From the NCBI RefSeq assembly GCF_050303215.1, contig NZ_JBNLBH010000019.1, positions 1 through 64,000 on the forward strand: 64,000 bases of DNA, given 5' to 3'. The first letter of the stretch is position 1, and the number at the start of each line of letters is the position of its first letter. The notes under the pieces were generated by a model. It was given only the letters and a program-made list of their open reading frames with translations, was not told the DNA's origin and searched no databases. Shown in pieces: positions 96 to 38,848 of the stretch. Both the position numbers and the translations under genes were made by a program. The stretch is from Haliangium sp. (lineage in GTDB: Bacteria > Myxococcota_A > Polyangia > Haliangiales > Haliangiaceae).

Positions 96-1502
96 TCAGC
101 TACCCTGCTCGCCCTCGCATCGAATAGCCTGCTTCGTAACAATCTCATACGGGAACATCAGCCGTGAGACGTAGCGGGTATCCTTCAGCGCATTAATAAT
201 CTTGCTCTCACCATAAGCGTGAATAGGCCAGCTCTTGCCGTTACGTTCACAGATGTAGATAGACTCGTCCGGCTTTTCCTCCTCTCGCCAGTCATACAGC
301 TTGTAGCTGGTTCGCTCGGCCTCATCTACGGCGACGTAGAAGTCAACCAATGTGGCATCAACATGGGCGATGCGCTTACAGGTGAGATCACGAGCTTTGG
401 CTATCAGCTCTAATGACTGCTTGGGCTTAGCCGGTAACTGTATTGTCTTTGGTAGACGGCGCTCGTAGAGTCGCCGAGAAAGATCTGAAAGGATCGGGTC
501 CGGGTGCCCTCTCCATTCGTCAACGAGGACCCAGACGTGGAATTCGCCCAAGTGGGAATATGTCTCAAGGTCGCACTGTCCACCTGTGTCGAAAAATCGC
601 TTCAATGGATGACGTCGGTCTCGCGTTGAGAATACATCTTTGTCTCCATTGCTTGCCAGCATGACGGCACGACGAAGGACGGAGGTCAGAAGCACGCTCG
701 CAGCCCGCACGGTGTGATGGAAGTAGATGGCTCGATACATTTGATCCAAAGCGACCAAATATCCCTCGACGGTTTCCAACCCCTTGCGATCCACACCGAC
801 CAATTGTCCATCCACATGCCGCAGCATATCCAAAAGACGAGCTAAATCGTAAGTATGGCCGCGAAGTCCGCATGCCGCTGCATCGCGCAGCAGATAATCG
901 AGCCGATCTGCATCGAGCTGACTCGACACTAATTTGTGACTCCAATGTGGTTTCTTTACCTTCTTACTAATATACTCGGCGACGCGTTCGGGAAAGGTCT
1001 GATCGACATGGCCCAGAGTCTCGGCGACAACCGACTCTCTGATGATACGCAAGGTCATCGCTTCGTGAGCGAACTCGATCCCTAGAACATCGAGAGCCTC
1101 CTCGAGAGTATGCGAGAAGGGACCGTGTCCGATGTCGTGCAGCAGTCCTGCCGCACATGTCGCCAGCCGGGTCTCGTCATCGGGCTCTTCACCCATGTTG
1201 CGGCAGATGCGATCGTACATCTCGCCGGCCAGATAGGCCACACCCATCGAGTGACTGAAACGTGAGTGCTCGGCGCCATGGAACACTAAATTGGTCAACC
1301 CGTTCTGACGGATGTGCCGTAGCCTCTGGAAGACTGGGGTGTCGATAAGCCGCTGCATCACCCAGCCGAAGCGCTTGTCACCGAATGCTGGTGAAGGGAT
1401 GTGCCGTTCGTCTTCGACCCGCTCGTAGCGAAGCTGCAAGTGTACTGGGTCGCGGAATAGACGAGGTGCTTTCTCGAATGCCATCCCGGTTGCATCATAC
1501 AC
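96..1502 (-). CDS. HD-domain phosphohydrolase, dGTP triphosphohydrolase (Dgt)-like
   Basis: 468-aa ORF with HD motifs H..HSRFSHSMGV, LLHDIGHGPFSH and DADRLDYLLRD, typical of the dGTPase family. Local GC is about 50-55% against about 70% for the rest of the window. Start could be M at 1502 or 1484. Confidence 0.8.
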   Translation of the reverse strand: MYDATGMAFEKAPRLFRDPVHLQLRYERVEDERHIPSPAFGDKRFGWVMQRLIDTPVFQRLRHIRQNGLTNLVFHGAEHSRFSHSMGVAYLAGEMYDRICRNMGEEPDDETRLATCAAGLLHDIGHGPFSHTLEEALDVLGIEFAHEAMTLRIIRESVVAETLGHVDQTFPERVAEYISKKVKKPHWSHKLVSSQLDADRLDYLLRDAAACGLRGHTYDLARLLDMLRHVDGQLVGVDRKGLETVEGYLVALDQMYRAIYFHHTVRAASVLLTSVLRRAVMLASNGDKDVFSTRDRRHPLKRFFDTGGQCDLETYSHLGEFHVWVLVDEWRGHPDPILSDLSRRLYERRLPKTIQLPAKPKQSLELIAKARDLTCKRIAHVDATLVDFYVAVDEAERTSYKLYDWREEEKPDESIYICERNGKSWPIHAYGESKIINALKDTRYVSRLMFPYEIVTKQAIRCEGEQGS

Positions 1503-1822
1503 ACCGCCTCCGACAATCTCGCTAGCGGAACTACCTGCGGCGGTCGTTCCACTGCTGACTGAATCGCTCTCACCCCCGTCAGATAGGCACCTGAGATACT
1601 CTGGAAGAGCGGCCGCTCCTTTTGTTGCAGTTGGGGGTTACATCGCTCAAGCGCCTGTGTCCAAGCTGACACACGTGTCGAAACCTTCGTGACGCAGCGC
1701 GGCATCCAGCCACAACTCAACGCGAGCTCCGAGGGTGTGAGTGCTTTCACTGGCCCGAAGTTGCCGCACGCCGTCGCCGCGTCGGCCGCGCGCTCCAGCC
1801 CCGGGACGACCAGGCGGCTGCG

Positions 1823-2050
1823 CCGACTCACCCTGGTCCGACGACGGCACCAGGCCAAGGATGCCTTGGATGTCGGCCGCCGGGCCGGACTTGGGTCCAA
1901 GGGGGAGGCGTTCCAGCAAGCGTGCGGCCACCTCGGCCACGCTCTCGCCGCCGAGGATGGCCAGTGGCGACAGATCCTTGGACAAGGCGCCGGCACGCTG
2001 CTGCCCGGCCAAGCCCTTGCGGGGCGCGATGAGCTCGTGCTGCAGAGCCC
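1823..2050 (-). pseudogene. Decayed duplicate of the 3' end of the MVP-like gene (about 75 codons); stop codon mutated TAG to CAG
   Basis: 228 bp align colinearly with 2549..2775 at roughly 89% identity. The fragment encodes ...[55 protein letters not shown], matching the MVP-like C-terminus. Nothing protein-like continues upstream in the same frame. Confidence 0.75.
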
Positions 2051-2543
2051 ACCGAGCGAAGAGCCTATCTGGGCAGAGGCGAGGACGGCACAGGCCCGGG
2101 CGAGCCCACGGCCCGAAGGCGGCGTCGTTGTCTGCTCCGACCAACCCAGATCGGACGGAGGGCCGAGACGATGCCGCGATGGGCAGGAGTACAGAGACGA
2201 GTCGGATGCCAGGACAAGGTCGAGACGAGGTGAACGCCGGCAGCCATGGGGGAGAGAGCCGTTGACCGGAGGGAGAGATAGGCGTTCGTGCGAGTCGTCC
2301 GCCGGTAGGGCCGTGGGCTCGTCTGGGCCGGTCCAGCCCAGCAAGCATCGAACCGGCGACGATCGAATCCCGTACACGCGTGTGCCAGCCCGAATTTGCC
2401 CCCGCTGCCATGCCGACTCGTGCGCACAGCAACCGGAACTCGGGCGTCGCACGGTCCATGGTCGACCACGAATAGACGAGAGCCCACCCTGGACCAGAGG
2501 GCTACCCGCCCACGCGCGCGCCAGCCCCGGGCCGAGCAGGCGT

Positions 2544-4577
2544 CTACGCCGACTCGCCCTGGTCCGGCGACGGCACCAGGCCAAGGATGCCTTGGATGTC
2601 GGCCGCCGGGCCCGACTTGGAGCCCAGGGGCAGACGGTCGAGCAAGCGCGCGGCCACCTCGGCCACGCTCTCGCCGCCGAGGATGGCCAGCGGCGACAGG
2701 TTCTTGGACAAAGCGCCGGCGAGCTGCTGCCCAGCCAGGCCCTTGAGGGTCGCGATGAGCTCGGGCTGCAGCGCCTCCATCTGCTCGCGAAAGGCCGCCG
2801 AGCGCGCGGCCAGGGCCTCCCGCGCCAACCCGGCCTCGCGGTCGGCGATCTCGAGCCGAGCCCGGCTGCGGATCGCGTCGGCCTCAGCCTCGTGCTCGGC
2901 CCGGCCGATCTTGTCCAGGCGGTCGCGCTCGATGATGGTCCCGATCCGCGCCAGCTCCACGGTGCGGCTCACGGCCTCGTGCTCGGCCGCCTTGGCCAGG
3001 GTCTCCATCTGGGCGCCGTAGATCTCTCGGTTGACCGACTCCTTGAGGTTCTCGTCGCCCAGTCGCAGCTCCTCCTGCCTGCGCGTGATCGCCGAGACGA
3101 TCGCCATGCGCTGGGCCTCCTGCAGCATGCGCTCGACGTCCTGGTCCAGGATGCGCACGTCGAGCACCTCGACGTCGTAGACCCACATCCCGTTCTCCTT
3201 GAAGTGCCGCCCCTCGCGCTCGCCGTCGTCGCCGCGCGCGCCCAGGATGGCGGTGCGCAAGATGTCAGTGCTGGTGCCGTGGAAGGTCTCGATCGAACTC
3301 GTCCGCGCGGCCGCGCGGATGATCGAACCGAGGTGGTCGCATAGCAGGCCGACATAGTCCTTGACGTTGAACCAGCGCTCGGAGTCGCCCACGAACGACA
3401 CTCGATACGACAGCAGGATCTCGAGCCCGACGTGGTCGGAGGTCTTGACCCGGACCAGGTCCGACACCTTGTTGCCCTGTACCTGCAAGAAGCAGGTGGG
3501 CAAGAGCTCCTCGTCGCTCTTCGGTCGCCCGGTCGATAAGGTCAGAACCTCGAGCTCCTCGTCGTAGTGCAGGATGCGGGTCTGGGGCCCGCTCACCACC
3601 TCGCGCTTGTTCTTGGCCGTGATCATCACCGCTGTGCTCGGGGGCACGTAGATCGACCACGCCCGGTTGGGGTCGCGGCTGTCGGTGTCGAGCCGGAACA
3701 GCACCGCCCGGCGCTCGTCGAGCCGACGCGTGACCAGTTCCTCGCGGGTGGGATCGACCAGGTAGTTCACCGGACCCTCGACGGTGGTGAGCTTGCCCGT
3801 GCCCAACTCGCGCGCGTAGATGGCCTCGTTTTCGGCCAGCGGGATCGGAGCCACCTCGCCCACGACGTCCAGGTTGTCGGAGGGGAAAAACATGCCCTCG
3901 CGGTCGCGCAGGAAGATGTCCTGCCCGGCCAGGTATCGGCCCTCGGGCACCTGCGCGGCGGGGCCGACCTCGAAGGGCGCGCGCACGCGCAGGTGCAGGC
4001 CCTTGTTGCGCTCCATACGCCAGGCCCGGCGCACGTAGCTGCCGTTGCGGTTGGGCACCACCTCCAGGCCGCTGGGCGGGATGTAGAAGCTCACGTCAGT
4101 GCCGCAGATGATGTGCTCGGTGCCGATCGGCTCGCCGTCGCCCATATCGTCGTACACACGGACGACGAGGTACTGGTCCAGGCGCAGCTCGTGGCCGTCG
4201 ATGACCTGGGCCCGCTGCCCGGGCCAGAGCGGGAACTCGGCCGGGCCGGGCACGACGACCTTGCGCCCGAAGCGGAGCGGGATGGCCGAGTTTGCGCCCT
4301 TGACCGGCTTGTCGTCGGGGTCCTGGGGCGGGTTCTCGAGGATGATGTACTGCGATGATGAGGCCGCGACGAACTTGTGTACCCCCAGCCCGGCCTCGTC
4401 GCCGCGCACGGGCACGAAGCGGCCGTCGCGCAGGATGATCATGCGCTCGGTGTTGGACAGGCTGATCTTGGTGGGGCCGACGTAGAGGACGATGTCTCCC
4501 TTGGTGAGGTCCTGCACGTAGGCGTACTCGTTGGGGGCAACCAGGATGTCGCGTTCGCGAATGTCTCGTTCTGCCAT
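2544..4577 (-). CDS. Major vault protein (MVP) homologue: vault repeats, shoulder domain and coiled-coil cap helix
   Basis: Matches human MVP from my recall of its sequence: [29 protein letters not shown] vs [39 protein letters not shown] vs [27 protein letters not shown] vs [55 protein letters not shown] vs [40 protein letters not shown]. N-terminal repeats have the Y.V.D...G..V.VGP pattern and the C-terminus is a long Ala/Glu/Arg coiled coil. Start taken at [12 protein letters not shown] (4577), inside the longer ORF 2544..4649. Confidence 0.85.
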   Translation of the reverse strand: [677 protein letters not shown]

Positions 4578-4722
4578 GGGCCTTGCTCTCCTTGTGGACT
4601 TGCTGCTCACCGGTCTCCAGGCCAAGAGCAAGCACCGTGCCGGCGGCAAGTGCCGGATTTGCCACGGCTACCAGCCCATGCGCGGCGCCGGACGTGTGTC
4701 TTGTTGGTGCACTTGCTCCGAA

Positions 4723-5922
4723 ATGAACCAGCCCCTGCCCAGCGATCCCTCGATCCCCTTGCCGGCCGTCAGCGCCAATGGCATCGTGCGGACGATGGCA
4801 AGCGGACCCACGACCTATTGGGACTACATCAAGGTGGAAGAGCTCCTGGCTCTGCAGACTGGGCTGGAGGACGACGAGGCGGCGCTGTCGAACGATGAGA
4901 TCATGTTCATCGTCGTGCACCAGATCGACGAGCTTTGGTTCAAGCTGGCCATTCGCGAGCTGGTGTCGGTGCGCGATCTGTTCGCCCAGGAGCACGTCCG
5001 CGAGCAGTCACTGGCCACGGCCGTGCGCGGCATCCGACGGGCCGCGCTGCTGTTCCAGCAGGCCGCCGGGCACTTCGCGCTGATGGAGACCTTGACCACC
5101 CGTGACTACCTGGCGTTCCGCGACAAGCTCAGCCCGGCCAGTGGGTTCCAGTCGGCCCAGATGCGCGAGATCGAGATCATCATGGGCCTGGGCGAGGCCG
5201 AGCGCCTGCCCTTGGGGCACGAGACCTATCAGCAGGCGCTGCGCTACCCGGATGGCTCCGGCTCGCCGGCGTCGCGCCGGGTCGAGCGCCGACTCCACGA
5301 TCGCCCGAGCCTGCGCGAGGCCATCGAGGCCTGGCTGCATCGAACCCCCATCGACGGCTCGGTGCCGGACGGCCCAGATGACGCCGCGCGCGTCACCGCC
5401 TTCATCGACGCGTTCTTGGCCGCCCAGCGGGACGAGATCAACGAGATCAAGACCCGCGCCATGGACAACGCGCTCACTGAGCAAGACCGGGAGCGGCTCG
5501 ACAAGCGCTATCAGGGCGAGCTCGCGGCGGCGCGGTCGTGGCTCGAAGCCCGCGATGTGGAGGTCGGCGACGATGAGTCCCGGCGTGCCTATCGCTCGCG
5601 CGTGCGCGCGGCCTTGGTCTTCATCGAGAGTTACCGCGAGCTGCCGCTGCTGGCCTGGCCGCGCGAGGTCATCGACGCCATCGTGGCCCTGGAGCAGGCG
5701 TTTACGATCTTCCGCCAGCGTCACGCTCGTATGGTCGAGCGCGTCATCGGCCGCCGCACCGGCACCGGAGGCTCGGCCGGGGTCGCCTACCTGGATCAGA
5801 CCGCGCTCGCCTACCGGGTGTTCAGCGACGTCTGGGCCACTCGCACCGTGCTGCTCCGCCGCGCAGTGCTGCCCCCGCTGCGACACCCGGAGCGCTACGG
5901 CTTCGCCGACGCGGACGAGTGA
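4723..5922 (+). CDS. kynA: Tryptophan 2,3-dioxygenase (eukaryote-like long form)
   Basis: TYWDYIKVEELLALQ and DEIMFIVVHQIDELWFKLAIREL match the TDO N-terminal helices. C-terminal RHARMVERVIGRRTGTGGSAGVAYL matches the TDO GTGGSSG motif. The first 64 codons of the ORF (4531..) are Arg/Ser-rich junk, so start moved to MNQPL. Confidence 0.88.
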   Translation: MNQPLPSDPSIPLPAVSANGIVRTMASGPTTYWDYIKVEELLALQTGLEDDEAALSNDEIMFIVVHQIDELWFKLAIRELVSVRDLFAQEHVREQSLATAVRGIRRAALLFQQAAGHFALMETLTTRDYLAFRDKLSPASGFQSAQMREIEIIMGLGEAERLPLGHETYQQALRYPDGSGSPASRRVERRLHDRPSLREAIEAWLHRTPIDGSVPDGPDDAARVTAFIDAFLAAQRDEINEIKTRAMDNALTEQDRERLDKRYQGELAAARSWLEARDVEVGDDESRRAYRSRVRAALVFIESYRELPLLAWPREVIDAIVALEQAFTIFRQRHARMVERVIGRRTGTGGSAGVAYLDQTALAYRVFSDVWATRTVLLRRAVLPPLRHPERYGFADADE

Positions 5923-18169: not shown

Positions 18170-21826
<3,657 letters not shown>

Positions 21827-22046
21827 GCGCCGCGGCGATCGCGCGATCTCGACGCCGAGGGCTCGACCGTCGACCGCATCGCGTGGTGCAGGCGAGACAT
21901 CCACGTCACAGGCTGAGGTACATCGGCCACAGCCGACCCCCGTGCAGACATGGAAGTATGCGCGCTCTGGGCCCGGCAGAGGCGGCACGGGGTTTGCTGA
22001 ATACCGGGAGCAGATGACGCCGCCATTGTTCCCGAAAGGATCGCAT

Positions 22047-23141
22047 ATGAAGTCCTCCCCTCGGCTGGCCGCGATGGCCCTCCTGCTCACTCCTGCCCTG
22101 GGCTGCATGGCCACCCCTGACGACCCCGGCGGCGACCCGCCCGACCCGCCATCAGGCCCAGACGCCGGCCCGCCGCCGTCGCCCCCGGACGCGCAGGTGC
22201 CGCCGACGGTCGGGTTCCGCACCTGCATGGACGGCGTGATGCCTGCCGATCTGCCCCAGGTGGACTGGTCGAACCCACTGAACGACGTCATCACCCTCGC
22301 CGACCCGTGGCACAGCGCCCAGGACGTGATCGCCGCGACCGGACACGACACCAACCTGGCGGGCAAGTTCTCGTACGGGGACATCAGCAAGGATCTGGAG
22401 GGCGAGCGGATCGAGGTCTGGATCGATGACTGCGCCGGGGGTTATCGCAAGCTGGGCGAGCAGGTCAGCAACTCCGACGGCCGCATCGGCCTGCCCCTGA
22501 GCAGCGCCGAGGTGCCCGCGGCGGGCGTCTACGGGCTGGTGTTCCGAGTCATGGGCGATGACAGCACGGCCGCCTCGGTGCTGCGCGTGTACCCGCCCGG
22601 GACCCACTTCGTGGTGTTCGACATCGACGCCACCCTCACCACCAGCGATAGCGAACTGGTGGGGCAAATCGTGGCCGAGATCCTGACCGGGATCGTCGCC
22701 CCGCCCGACGCCCGCGCCGGCGCGCACGACATCGCCGCGCTACGACACCAGCAGGGCTACGAGCTCATCTACCTCACCGGACGGCCCTATCTGCTCGACG
22801 CCCTCACCCGCGGCTGGCTCGACGACCTGAGCTTCCCCGGCGGCACCGTGCACCTCACCGACGAGGTCGCCGACTCGTGGCCGTCGGAGAGCGCGGTGGG
22901 CGACTACAAGGCCGATTTTCTGCAGTCCGTGCTCGACCTCGGCTTCACCATCGACCTGGCCTACGGCAACGCCAGCAGCGACATCTACGCCTACGAGCAG
23001 GTCGGCGTCGCCAAGGAGCGGACCTATATCCTCGGTGAGAACGGCGGCATGGCGGGCACCGTGGCCCTGGGCGACACCTACCTCGCGCACCTCGACGACG
23101 CCGCCGCAGAGGCGGCTCCCGAACAGCCGTTCGAGCGTTAG
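22047..23141 (+). CDS. Lipoprotein with lipin/LNS2-like HAD phosphatase domain
   Basis: Signal peptide plus lipobox LLTPALGC. HAD motif I FVVFDIDATLTTSD. C-terminal LAYGNASSDIYAYEQVGVAKERTYILGENG parallels the lipin LNS2 segment [30 protein letters not shown]. RBS aaagga upstream. Confidence 0.75.
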   Translation: MKSSPRLAAMALLLTPALGCMATPDDPGGDPPDPPSGPDAGPPPSPPDAQVPPTVGFRTCMDGVMPADLPQVDWSNPLNDVITLADPWHSAQDVIAATGHDTNLAGKFSYGDISKDLEGERIEVWIDDCAGGYRKLGEQVSNSDGRIGLPLSSAEVPAAGVYGLVFRVMGDDSTAASVLRVYPPGTHFVVFDIDATLTTSDSELVGQIVAEILTGIVAPPDARAGAHDIAALRHQQGYELIYLTGRPYLLDALTRGWLDDLSFPGGTVHLTDEVADSWPSESAVGDYKADFLQSVLDLGFTIDLAYGNASSDIYAYEQVGVAKERTYILGENGGMAGTVALGDTYLAHLDDAAAEAAPEQPFER

Positions 23142-35938: not shown

Positions 35939-38848
35939 ATGCGACCACATCGACCTTTGGCGGGGCCTATGAAACCCGACTGCCAGGCTCGAATCGAGCC
36001 GCGGCGGCGCAGGCACGACGGGAGATACGCCGGCGCAGCCCTGCTGGCGTGGGTCGCGCTGGTCGCGTGCCGGCCGGCAGAGAACCCGCCCGCGTCCGCA
36101 TTCGCGGGCGAGGTCGAGCACAACCGCGCCGCGCTCGCTCAGCTCTCCAACGGCCTGAGCCAGAACAACCTCGGCCCCAACGGGATCGCGTTCAACCACG
36201 TCAACCCCAGCGGCCTCGCCTTCAACGGCGTGCAGCTCAACCTCGCCTCCCTCAACCTCGCCTCCCTCAACCTCGCCTCGCTCAACCTCGCCTCCCTCAA
36301 CCTCGCCTCCCTCAACGGCGCCGTCTATGAGGACATCTGGCTGAACACGCTCTCCTTCGACGCCGAGGCCATGAGCAACGCGTCTCTCAACGCGGCCTCC
36401 CTCTCCGACGCCACGTTGAGCACGATGAAGATCGACGGGCAGCCCATCAGCGCGCTCGAGGCCGACGACGTCGAGAACATCATCAAGTACCTGGCCGAGT
36501 GCGCCCTCGTCGTGGGGCAGTGCGTCACCGTCACCCGGCTCGACGGCACCACCCAGGACTATTGTGGCTTGGAAGGACACGATCCCACCTGGAACGTGAA
36601 CGTGCCCGATTTGACCAAGTCCGCCGACATGGGCGAGTGCTTCGTCCGTCGCGCCGGCGCAGACGGTCACACAGCCACCCACGAGCCGTGGAACATCGAG
36701 GCCACCAAGATTCTGCTCCAGTACATGGTCGAGTGCGCCCTTTCTCCCGGCCAAAGCGCTACCATCTACGACATCGACGGTGTCACCCCCATGGTGTTCG
36801 AGGGCTCGCTCGGGCTGGCCCCGAGCTGGCGTGACGGCGCGCCCACCTCCGTGGAGCAGCGCAAGGTGTCGGCGTGTCTGGCGGCGCGCTCCAACGCCAA
36901 GGGCAAGAAGGTGCGGATCTCGCTGCGGGGCTCGGGCATCACCACGTCCGCGGTCGAGCGCGCCCACTTCGATACCCACGAGGGCGCGTTCTGGGGCGAC
37001 GTGTTCGGCCCCACCCCCGAAATCCACACTTGCATGGTCACCGGCGGCGGGCTGTCGGGGCGCACCTGCACCGAGGGCGACTGCGGCTTCCGCTCGTTGG
37101 GCGACTGCGCCGACGTGTGCAGCCAGCGCGACCCGGTCGATCTCGCCTACGGTGACTGCGACGGCGAGTCGGCCGTGATCAACACCTTCCTCGATCTGGG
37201 CCAGGAGCTGGCCTTCGGCGACGAGCACAACTGCTTCATTCGCAACGACGGCACGCTGTGGTGCTGGGGCAAGAACAACCTCGGTCAGCTCGGCCTGGGC
37301 TTCGTGTCCGACTTCGAACCCTACCCGCTCCAGGTCATGACCCTGAGCGGCGCCGTGGCCGAGGTCTCGGGCGGCTGGCGCCACACCTGCGCCCGCACCA
37401 CCAGTGGCGATGGGTACTGCTGGGGCCTGAACAGCAAGGGGCAGCTCGGTGACGGCACCATCGTCGACCGCTCCAAGCCGACCTACGTCTCCGCCCTGAG
37501 CAGCGACGTCGCCGCGATCTCGGCCAACGACCGCCATAGCTGCGCCCGCCGCACCGACGGCACCCTACACTGCTGGGGCAACAACGACTTCGGTCAGGTC
37601 GGCGACGGCAGCGGCGTCGACCAGCCCCTGCCGGTGCCGGTGAGCGCGCTCGGCAACCAGGTCTCGGAGCGCTCGCTGGGCTCGCGCTCGCGCTCGAGCT
37701 GCGCCATCACCATCAGCGGCGATCTGTACTGCTGGGGCCGAAACGACTACGGTCAGGTCGGCGACGGTAGCCTCGTCGATCGCCTCGTCCCGGTGGTCGT
37801 GGACCAGGACGCCGGCGGCGGTGCCTTCGGCGCCGTGACCGACGTCTGCGGCGGCGAGGCCCACACCTGCGCGCGCCGCAGCGACGGCACGGTGTGGTGC
37901 TGGGGTCAGGATTCCCAGTACCAGATCGGCGCCGGCGCCCCGACCCTGAGCCCCCGCCCCCGACCGGTCCAGACCGCGTTCCCGGGCTTCGCCGCGCCCG
38001 GCGGCCTGTCCTGCGGACGCGACCACACCTGCGCCATCCGCGACGACGGGGCCTTGTTCTGCTGGGGCGCAAACGATTTCGGCGAGGTCGGCGACGGCAC
38101 CTCCAGCCCGGCCGAGATCCCGACCCAGGTCACCGCCCTCGGCACCGACGTCGAGCTGGTGACCTGCCAGGGCGAGACGAGCTGCGCGGTGAGCTTTGAC
38201 GGCACCCTGTCGTGCTGGGGCCGAGATACGCACGCGCTGCTGTTCCCGGGTTGGTCCTCGTCGGTGCCGGTCGTCGTCGACCTGGCCTGCAACCACAACG
38301 CGGTGTGCGAGCCCGAGCACGCGGAGTCCTGTGACACCTGCGCCGCCGACTGCGGCGTGTGCGACACCGCTCGGGTGTCGCTGGCCCCGAGTGACGACAC
38401 CGAGGCCCGGGCCAAGAAGCCCGACACCAGCTACGGCGGGCAAGACCCGATCACGAGCGTGGCCTCGGCCCTCGCCGAGGAGCGCTTGCTGCTGCGCTTC
38501 GACCTCTCCGCCGCCCCCGGCTCCAGCGTGAGCCAAGCCATCCTGCGCCTGTACTCCAACGACCCCAGCGGGGTGTGCGACTTGGTGCGGATCGACGACG
38601 ACGGCTGGAGCGAAGACACCCTCACCTGGAACGACATGCCGGCGCCCGGGGTCAGCCTCGGGGCGGTGAGCGGCGTGGCCGGCGGCTGGGTGTACGTAGA
38701 CGTCACCGACTACGTCAGCGACGAGTACGCCGGCGACGGCGTGGTCAGCTTCGCCTGCGTGGCCCAGTCCGGCACCTTCTCCATCGCCTCCAAGGAAGAC
38801 GCTGCGCCCGCGGTTCATCCGGTCCTCGATGTGGACGTCACGCCATAG
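35939..38848 (+). CDS. Secreted lipoprotein: pentapeptide-like repeats, 7-bladed RCC1 propeller, C-terminal DNRLRE domain
   Basis: Lipobox LVAC. Pentapeptide-like 5-residue periodicity GIAFN/GLAFN/GVQLN/(LASLN)x5. Six RCC1 signatures such as WCWGKNNLGQLGLG, YCWGLNSKGQLGDG and HCWGNNDFGQVGDG. C-terminal LRLYSNDPSGVCDLVRIDDDGWSEDTLTWNDMP matches the DNRLRE domain. Confidence 0.85.
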   Translation: MRPHRPLAGPMKPDCQARIEPRRRRHDGRYAGAALLAWVALVACRPAENPPASAFAGEVEHNRAALAQLSNGLSQNNLGPNGIAFNHVNPSGLAFNGVQLNLASLNLASLNLASLNLASLNLASLNGAVYEDIWLNTLSFDAEAMSNASLNAASLSDATLSTMKIDGQPISALEADDVENIIKYLAECALVVGQCVTVTRLDGTTQDYCGLEGHDPTWNVNVPDLTKSADMGECFVRRAGADGHTATHEPWNIEATKILLQYMVECALSPGQSATIYDIDGVTPMVFEGSLGLAPSWRDGAPTSVEQRKVSACLAARSNAKGKKVRISLRGSGITTSAVERAHFDTHEGAFWGDVFGPTPEIHTCMVTGGGLSGRTCTEGDCGFRSLGDCADVCSQRDPVDLAYGDCDGESAVINTFLDLGQELAFGDEHNCFIRNDGTLWCWGKNNLGQLGLGFVSDFEPYPLQVMTLSGAVAEVSGGWRHTCARTTSGDGYCWGLNSKGQLGDGTIVDRSKPTYVSALSSDVAAISANDRHSCARRTDGTLHCWGNNDFGQVGDGSGVDQPLPVPVSALGNQVSERSLGSRSRSSCAITISGDLYCWGRNDYGQVGDGSLVDRLVPVVVDQDAGGGAFGAVTDVCGGEAHTCARRSDGTVWCWGQDSQYQIGAGAPTLSPRPRPVQTAFPGFAAPGGLSCGRDHTCAIRDDGALFCWGANDFGEVGDGTSSPAEIPTQVTALGTDVELVTCQGETSCAVSFDGTLSCWGRDTHALLFPGWSSSVPVVVDLACNHNAVCEPEHAESCDTCAADCGVCDTARVSLAPSDDTEARAKKPDTSYGGQDPITSVASALAEERLLLRFDLSAAPGSSVSQAILRLYSNDPSGVCDLVRIDDDGWSEDTLTWNDMPAPGVSLGAVSGVAGGWVYVDVTDYVSDEYAGDGVVSFACVAQSGTFSIASKEDAAPAVHPVLDVDVTP
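36236..36310 (+). repeat. Perfect in-frame 15-bp x5 tandem repeat (ctcaacctcgcctcc; one C/G variant) encoding (LASLN)x5
   Basis: Read directly from the sequence; lies inside the RCC1 lipoprotein gene. Confidence 0.9.

Follow-up and report, generated by a model that had tools for sequence, protein, structure and literature searches.

In a 64,000-nucleotide stretch of the genome of Haliangium sp. (RefSeq assembly GCF_050303215.1, contig NZ_JBNLBH010000019.1, positions 1 to 64,000; hereafter the window), we have identified a gene at 2544..4577 on the minus strand whose product truly belongs to the MVP (major vault protein) family, as a prokaryotic member in a short form. It is an MVP by homology, domain order and fold, and not a generic SPFH protein; the family to which it belongs is broad, and its gene lacks a conserved neighbour. 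It is reasonable to regard the protein as a candidate for a vault-like shell. Our favoured interpretation, which we hold to be probable but well short of certain, is that it forms a self-assembling, partner-free mini-vault cage, for which we infer oligomerisation, closure and any cargo or physiological role.

The coding sequence is complete. Its open reading frame runs intact from an ATG at 4577 to a stop codon at 2544-2546 and encodes 677 amino acids, one fewer than the 678 given in an earlier note on this DNA. The start is conserved, in that homologues begin at the same MAERD/MADRD residues, and a Shine-Dalgarno-like AAGGAG (4588..4593, minus strand), read off the sequence, lies 10 nucleotides 5' of the ATG. 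The third-position GC content of the gene (0.93) is like that of the neighbouring host genes. A scan of positions 1400-4900 gave zero sigma-70 promoter matches and no terminator-like site 3' of the gene; its three terminator-like matches all lie 5' of the ATG, at 4633-4700. In the protein, no segment is hydrophobic (the 19-residue Kyte-Doolittle mean peaks at 1.08) and the net charge is -21; this indicates that it is soluble and cytoplasmic. A database protein that is 100% identical (P0001) carries the name 'hypothetical protein [Haliangium sp.]', and several close relatives have already been labelled 'major vault protein' by JGI.

The product had been described as colinear with the shoulder/cap region of eukaryotic MVP, and Pfam, phmmer, profile and BLASTP searches agree that it is. 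The Pfam family MVP_shoulder (PF11978) matched amino acids 369-478 over model positions 3-118 of 118, with an E-value of 7.7e-29 and 100.6 bits against a cutoff of 25. When the protein was compared with the PDB by phmmer, MVP chains alone were matched (E 4e-27), and a profile built from 30 homologues reached 7e-55 in a colinear alignment of residues 149-606 with rat MVP 293-772. BLASTP against human MVP aligned residues 11-199 with human 8-179 (repeats R1-R3, E 1e-3) and the remaining part, from R6 through the cap, at E 2e-30, with an identity of about 26%; the 295-766 stretch of the human sequence used here reproduces the PDB alignment. Among the repeat models, Vault_3 matched amino acids 320-358 with 29.7 bits, just over its gathering cutoff of 28.8, and with 33 bits when the repeat was scanned by itself; Vault_4 stayed below its threshold at amino acids 245-281 (19.7-20.8 bits vs 22.9). 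No match to Band_7 (PF01145) was found at E<=0.01, and none to TolA either at E<=0.01 with the whole protein or at E<=10 with the C-terminal 198 amino acids. The check proposed in the earlier note, against vault-repeat and MVP-shoulder models, has therefore returned matches, and a best match to SPFH families only was not seen.

The predicted structure tells the same story. The AlphaFold2 model has a mean predicted local distance difference test score (pLDDT) of 70, rising to 80-90 across the last repeats, the shoulder and the helix. Among the Foldseek matches listed from the PDB, full-length MVP takes ranks 1-12 (E 1e-31 to 7e-26), and crystal structures of murine MVP R1-R7 take ranks 13-16 (E 1e-12); erlin, flotillin, prohibitin, HflK/C, stomatin and QmcA follow the MVPs at about 1e-6. 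Reading from the N-terminus, with all features on the minus strand, the AlphaFold2 strands, Foldseek, the Vault_3 and Vault_4 models and alignment gaps together outline about six vault-type beta repeats at amino acids 10-365 (3483..4550), with approximate bounds at 10-62, 63-119, 120-178, 179-233, 234-304 and 305-365. These are followed by an SPFH-like shoulder domain at amino acids 369-478 (3144..3473), defined by the Pfam match and modelled as an alpha/beta fold at 369-476 with a pLDDT of 80-89. The equivalent of the MVP cap helix occupies amino acids 479-614 (2736..3143) as a single continuous predicted helix of 136 residues, and aligns with the cap helix of rat MVP from 647 to about 772. 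A conserved helical segment at amino acids 615-650 (2628..2735), modelled with short helices at 618-634 and 638-648, takes the position of the cap ring and bears a 12-residue motif common to the long prokaryotic forms. The last 27 residues, amino acids 651-677 (2547..2627), form a variable tail that is probably disordered, judging by a modelled pLDDT below 50.

Thus, the MVP-type N-terminal repeats that the earlier note had recognized are borne out by fold and by one Pfam repeat model, but there are about six of them by the modelled strands and the alignment, and not the nine (R1-R9) of animal MVP. In a six-sequence alignment, the gaps that are as long as a repeat number three relative to human MVP and one relative to P0121 (716 amino acids), the nearest representative at 50% identity, so that repeat number, and hence the expected height of the barrel, differs among close relatives. 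Repeat number also varies among accepted members of the family, with five in Asgard homologues (PMC12962969), and for this reason six rather than nine repeats does not exclude membership.

Conservation was assessed in 30 homologues, whose overall identity is 58-79%. No stretch is more conserved than the R1 core at amino acids 7-45 (4443..4559, minus strand), which aligns with human MVP 8-44, the waist-forming repeat of eukaryotes; its mean identity is 97.5%, and 33 of its 39 columns are invariant, yet it is modelled with a pLDDT below 50. Mean identity is 74% in R6, 72% in the shoulder and 72% at amino acids 596-650, with 12 of the 36 columns at 615-650 invariant. It falls to 43% in the middle of the cap helix, which is the least conserved ordered region, and to 0.20 (20%) in the tail, where no column is invariant. 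Constraint is thus strongest in R1 and in the C-terminal stretch, which correspond to the waist and the cap, where the eukaryotic particle is closed. In eukaryotic vaults, nascent MVP chains dimerise first via their N-termini (PMC13100048), and the two conservation peaks would fit a cage that assembles from such N-terminal dimerisation.

The family is far larger and taxonomically broader than the 'few Bacteria' usually cited. A word-indexed search returned at least 658 homologues, the best 120 of which are 53-80% identical and 645-765 amino acids long. An exhaustive search with the profile yielded 1,592 clusters at 50% identity, of which 708 reach E<=1e-30, a number that indicates a maintained, selected function. 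Most of the 1,592 clusters are 800-930 amino acids long, and the short form is confined to one or two of them. The spread of close homologues in Myxococcota, which had been raised as a question, thus proves to be wide, and it extends beyond the phylum. With no more than two peptide patterns, relatives came to light in 159 stretches of GTDB species-representative genomes, with bacterial hosts in Myxococcota (Haliangiales, Polyangiales, Myxococcaceae, Labilithrix), Planctomycetota, Acidobacteriota, Vulcanimicrobiota, Wallbacteria and lineages of the Candidate Phyla Radiation (CPR), and archaeal hosts in Methanosarcinales and Nanoarchaeota. Relatives at 31-41% identity were seen in metagenome-assembled genomes of archaea (L055-L057, L074, Methanosarcinales; L056, Nanoarchaeota) and of CPR bacteria, which have small genomes (L075, L076, L080). 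Furthermore, the huge phages LR756500.1 (21402-23363), LR756501.1 and LR756503.1 (17320-18918), with genomes of 462-735 kb, encode MVP relatives at 28-35% identity and about 75% query coverage.

The MVP gene appears to stand alone. Partners resembling TEP1, PARP4 or vault RNA, which the earlier note had suggested looking for, were not found nearby: none of the 15 window open reading frames scanned against Pfam has TEP1- or PARP-like domains (TROVE/vWA/NACHT, or PARP with MINT) or is a tol-pal neighbour, and no Rfam RNA family (vault, Y RNA) and no tRNA occurs anywhere in the window. The neighbourhoods of 80 related loci were compared by all-against-all clustering of open reading frames within 10 kb on either side. 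Apart from the MVP gene and its shadow open reading frames, this recovered only Ser/Thr kinases and sensor kinases of a generic myxobacterial type, whose distance from the gene varies. Kinases were present within 10 kb in 31 of the 80 loci, a frequency that probably reflects the myxobacterial background. In four loci (L061, L062, L063, L070), which form one divergent subgroup of Myxococcota/Pseudomonadota at 37-38% identity, a gene of the Ser/Thr kinase family lies on the opposite strand, convergent with the MVP gene and about 25-31 nucleotides past its stop.

The eukaryotic vault shell is built from 39-fold half shells that join into a closed particle of 78 MVP chains. By analogy with eukaryotic MVP (human and rat; PDB 4V60, 9BW5), many copies of the Haliangium protein would pack side by side through shoulder and cap helix to give a cup-shaped, thin-walled cytoplasmic cage, and two such cups would join through the extremely conserved R1 into a closed mini-vault with a shorter barrel. 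The order of beta repeats, SPFH-like shoulder, long cap helix and C-terminal segment is the same in the two proteins, which are colinear over their whole length, match in fold with a Foldseek E-value of 1e-31, and have in common a VGP motif in R1 and a GRPK loop in the shoulder. In this 'keyhole loop', G350-R351-P352-K353, residues G350, P352 and K353 are invariant in the family. Lateral docking was predicted for related bacterial homologues by Daly et al. (PMC3762200), and a multimer model of a five-repeat Asgard homologue gives a closed cup (PMC12962969). The proposed cage would also work without the accessory parts of eukaryotes. In human vaults, the MINT domain of PARP4 docks on R3-R5 of MVP (PMC12280208), whereas in the Haliangium protein this surface falls, by alignment, in the missing stretch; together with the lack of a linked partner gene or vault RNA, this suggests that the accessory parts are dispensable. 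Further differences from eukaryotic vaults are the low identity, the smaller number of repeats, the lack of TEP1, PARP4 and vault RNA detected near the gene, and the fact that the cage is here predicted from sequence and model.

Several observations weigh against a closed vault-like cage. There is no conserved partner or cargo gene within 10 kb in the 80 related loci, and the generic Vault repeat models of Pfam found no match in the first four repeats. The column profile of the cap helix lacks a heptad-like hydrophobic period. R1 is modelled with low confidence despite its conservation; its core may fold or become ordered only inside an assembled interface. The residues that form the human waist (F6, I7, I36, R9, D39, N22 and N40; PMC12280208) are not kept, and the bacterial family has an invariant, charged R7-E8-R9-D10 in their place. 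Similarly, human MVP binds NAD+/ADP-ribose in a pocket between adjacent shoulders formed by R504, K506, R507, H509, R511, D521, W545 and K573 (PMC12280208), and the equivalents of R507, H509, R511, W545 and K573 are here S, E, L, V and D. Conservation of the pocket residues varies even among animals (PMC12280208), but as only part of the pocket is kept, nucleotide binding is not inferable for the Haliangium protein.

These same observations bear on what else the protein might be. The absence of the human waist contacts would suit a single dome, or half cage, of the type made by HflK/C, QmcA and flotillin. Such a dome would rest against the cytoplasmic membrane from the inside, or against a different surface, where it would organize or sequester something. 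The canonical SPFH/band-7 cages (HflK/C, QmcA, stomatin, flotillin, prohibitin, erlin) resemble the Haliangium protein in having an SPFH-fold shoulder followed by a long helix, which in their case mediates lateral oligomerisation into domes, and they are its next-best structural matches. Moreover, all other SPFH families form half cages (PMC12624060, PMC13100048), and some Dictyostelium vaults bind membranes (PMC13100048). However, the Haliangium protein has no transmembrane or amphipathic N-terminal anchor, as its hydropathy maximum attests, and Band_7 goes unmatched where MVP_shoulder scores so strongly. Six MVP repeats, about 365 residues of family-specific sequence before the SPFH domain, sit where SPFH proteins have their membrane anchor, and R1, the repeat that dimerises in vaults, is the most conserved part of all. 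We therefore regard a half cage as unlikely, but as a reading that deserves to be kept in mind. A scaffold that does not form a cage at all seems highly improbable. Bacterial homologues found earlier had been given TolA or colicin-uptake annotations, and it is by way of the helical region that BLAST brings up TolA (PMC3762200; bioRxiv 10.1101/872010); with a helix of such length, the protein might be pictured as an elongated coiled-coil rod in which the MVP-like domains serve as spacers. But TolA models find nothing in either the whole protein or its C-terminal part, no membrane anchor is present, the helix is the least conserved region while repeats and shoulder are conserved, and the similarity to MVP covers the whole length, well beyond the helix.

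The patchy spread of the family over very distant phyla, including CPR bacteria and Nanoarchaeota, raises the further possibility of a mobile shell or scaffold linked to phage or defence, spreading horizontally and taking part in infection or immunity, perhaps through sequestration of nucleotides or of molecules derived from NAD, with a neighbouring HD-domain gene in the same island. Relatives occur in the huge phages LR756500, LR756501 and LR756503 and in gut phages (bioRxiv 10.1101/2023.11.10.566534), the adjacent low-GC HD gene matches the dGTPase model of PADLOC (6e-12), and a truncated copy of the MVP 3' end hints that the site once underwent rearrangement or integration. NAD+/ADP-ribose is a ligand of the human vault, which also houses a TIR-like NADase (PMC12280208; bioRxiv 10.64898/2026.05.01.722283). 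We nevertheless consider this reading improbable, as the MVP protein has no PADLOC or PHROG match, an exact-pattern scan of IMG/VR found no relative, the composition of the gene is that of its host, and most residues of the human nucleotide pocket are not conserved; nor is the HD gene, or any other defence-type neighbour, conserved in the 80 related loci. Finally, eukaryotic contamination of a metagenome bin, or very recent transfer from a eukaryote, might be suspected from the eukaryote-type gene next door, and Daly et al. favoured transfer from eukaryote to bacterium for the cyanobacterial copies (PMC3762200). This explanation is effectively refuted by an identity of 26% to human MVP as against 60-80% to hundreds of bacterial proteins, by the host-like third-position GC and the Shine-Dalgarno site, by a setting among typical myxobacterial genes, and by invariant motifs that are the bacterial family's own.

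The Haliangium protein adds a new, shortened example to a kind that is already known, if experimentally untouched. In 2013, Daly et al. listed ten MVP homologues from bacteria, among them Corallococcus and Plesiocystis, at about 25% identity to eukaryotic MVP (PMC3762200), and further ones were analysed in silico by Sokolskyi in 2019 (bioRxiv 10.1101/872010). Phage MVPs were reported in 2023 (bioRxiv 10.1101/2023.11.10.566534) and the five-repeat Asgard MVPs in 2026 in Nature Microbiology (PMC12962969). The earlier statement that bacterial MVPs are essentially unstudied is thus correct as far as experiments go, our literature searches having found no experimental study of any prokaryotic MVP, but not with respect to in silico work, which had catalogued myxobacterial examples by 2013 and 2019. 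The Haliangium protein most likely belongs to the bacterial group of these two studies (Corallococcus coralloides H8MNI3, Plesiocystis pacifica A6FXM1 and A6FXE2, Saprospira grandis and Microscilla marina), whose members, by their descriptions, share with it the phylum or niche (Myxococcota), an identity of about 25% to eukaryotic MVP and a predicted MVP fold. At 677 amino acids, it is short compared with the average of 822 for bacterial MVPs (bioRxiv 10.1101/2023.11.10.566534). The Asgard homologues, as described, are likewise a shortened prokaryotic form with reduced repeats (five), shoulder and cap helix, but belong to another domain of life, and some are nearer to eukaryotic MVP in the authors' tree (PMC12962969). 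As homologues from culturable myxobacteria were already known in 2013, this example alone leaves the state of knowledge as it was.

Vault function has resisted resolution for about forty years. Prokaryotic MVPs offer a simpler system, without TEP1, PARP4 or vault RNA, and the strong constraint on R1 and the C-terminal segment leads to testable predictions about assembly. We also entertain, more tentatively and with doubts that outweigh our confidence, the idea that a six-repeat closed nanocompartment in free-living bacteria might represent the ancestral minimal vault, in which R7-E8-R9-D10 would provide a different, self-complementary waist contact. If this were true, a culturable myxobacterium would expose the primordial function of vaults.

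The genes around the MVP gene differ in character. Downstream of it, at 96-1502 on the minus strand, lies a gene for an HD-domain protein with an HD_assoc_2 region. Its GC content of 53-58%, compared with about 70% around it, agrees with the earlier description of a compositionally foreign HD hydrolase. The protein looks, from its matches, like a dGTPase-type phosphohydrolase: besides the PADLOC hit it matches phrog_35128 at 1e-24, although it falls far under the NCBIfam dGTPase cutoffs. None of the 80 related loci has this gene, which suggests that it was inserted recently from a foreign source, possibly one connected with defence or with a phage.

Between the HD gene and the MVP gene lies a truncated second MVP 3' end (1787..2049, minus strand), which comprises the last 77 codons and 31 nucleotides of downstream sequence. 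It forms a direct repeat (D1) with the MVP gene, in which 1787-2049 matches 2513-2775 over 263 nucleotides at 89% identity and a spacing of 726; by tblastn, amino acids 602-677 are matched in it, also at 89%. This sequence had been called a decayed duplicate. The duplication is real, its stop codon has been lost (TAG to CAG) and the open reading frame that holds it fails the coding-composition filter, but decay does not describe its differences well: 15 of the 23 coding differences are synonymous and eight non-synonymous, giving a dN/dS of 0.18. Such a mostly synonymous pattern indicates that the duplicate diverged under purifying selection, from a once-functional copy. Judged by these substitutions, it is what remains of a second MVP 3' end that had diverged, and its decay is not fresh; it may have been left by a truncated paralogue, by duplication at an integration site or by an assembly join. 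The 463-nucleotide spacer that separates the two copies (2050-2512) is unique, with no counterpart elsewhere in the window or among the related loci. It holds a 32-nucleotide inverted repeat (2083-2114 and 2308-2339).

On the other side, divergent from the MVP gene at 4723-5922 on the plus strand, is a gene for a tryptophan 2,3-dioxygenase (TDO) of the long type. That this enzyme is eukaryote-like, as previously noted, is upheld by its best PDB matches, which are long-chain, eukaryote-type entries of 355-403 residues matched over their full length at 1e-42, as against 1e-28, in two pieces, for the short-chain entries of 276-306 residues. It also scores below the NCBIfam cutoff for bacterial TDO. 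TDO and two further upstream genes are common only to the closest Haliangium metagenome-assembled genome (L002), where the TDO match is partial. A link between TDO, through NAD synthesis, and NAD binding by MVP was considered and rejected, as it has no syntenic support and TDO is shared with that genome only.

The scanned window genes are otherwise ordinary for a myxobacterium, with a Ser/Thr kinase bearing TPR repeats, an MscS-like channel, an aconitase, a UvrD-like helicase, a beta-lactamase-fold protein, an amidohydrolase and an RCC1-repeat protein. Two window genes, both on the plus strand, encode domain families typical of eukaryotes: one at 21588-23141 specifies a protein with lipin/PITM-type LNS2 domains, and one at 35939-38848 a protein of 969 amino acids that combines RCC1 repeats with a CBM96 module.

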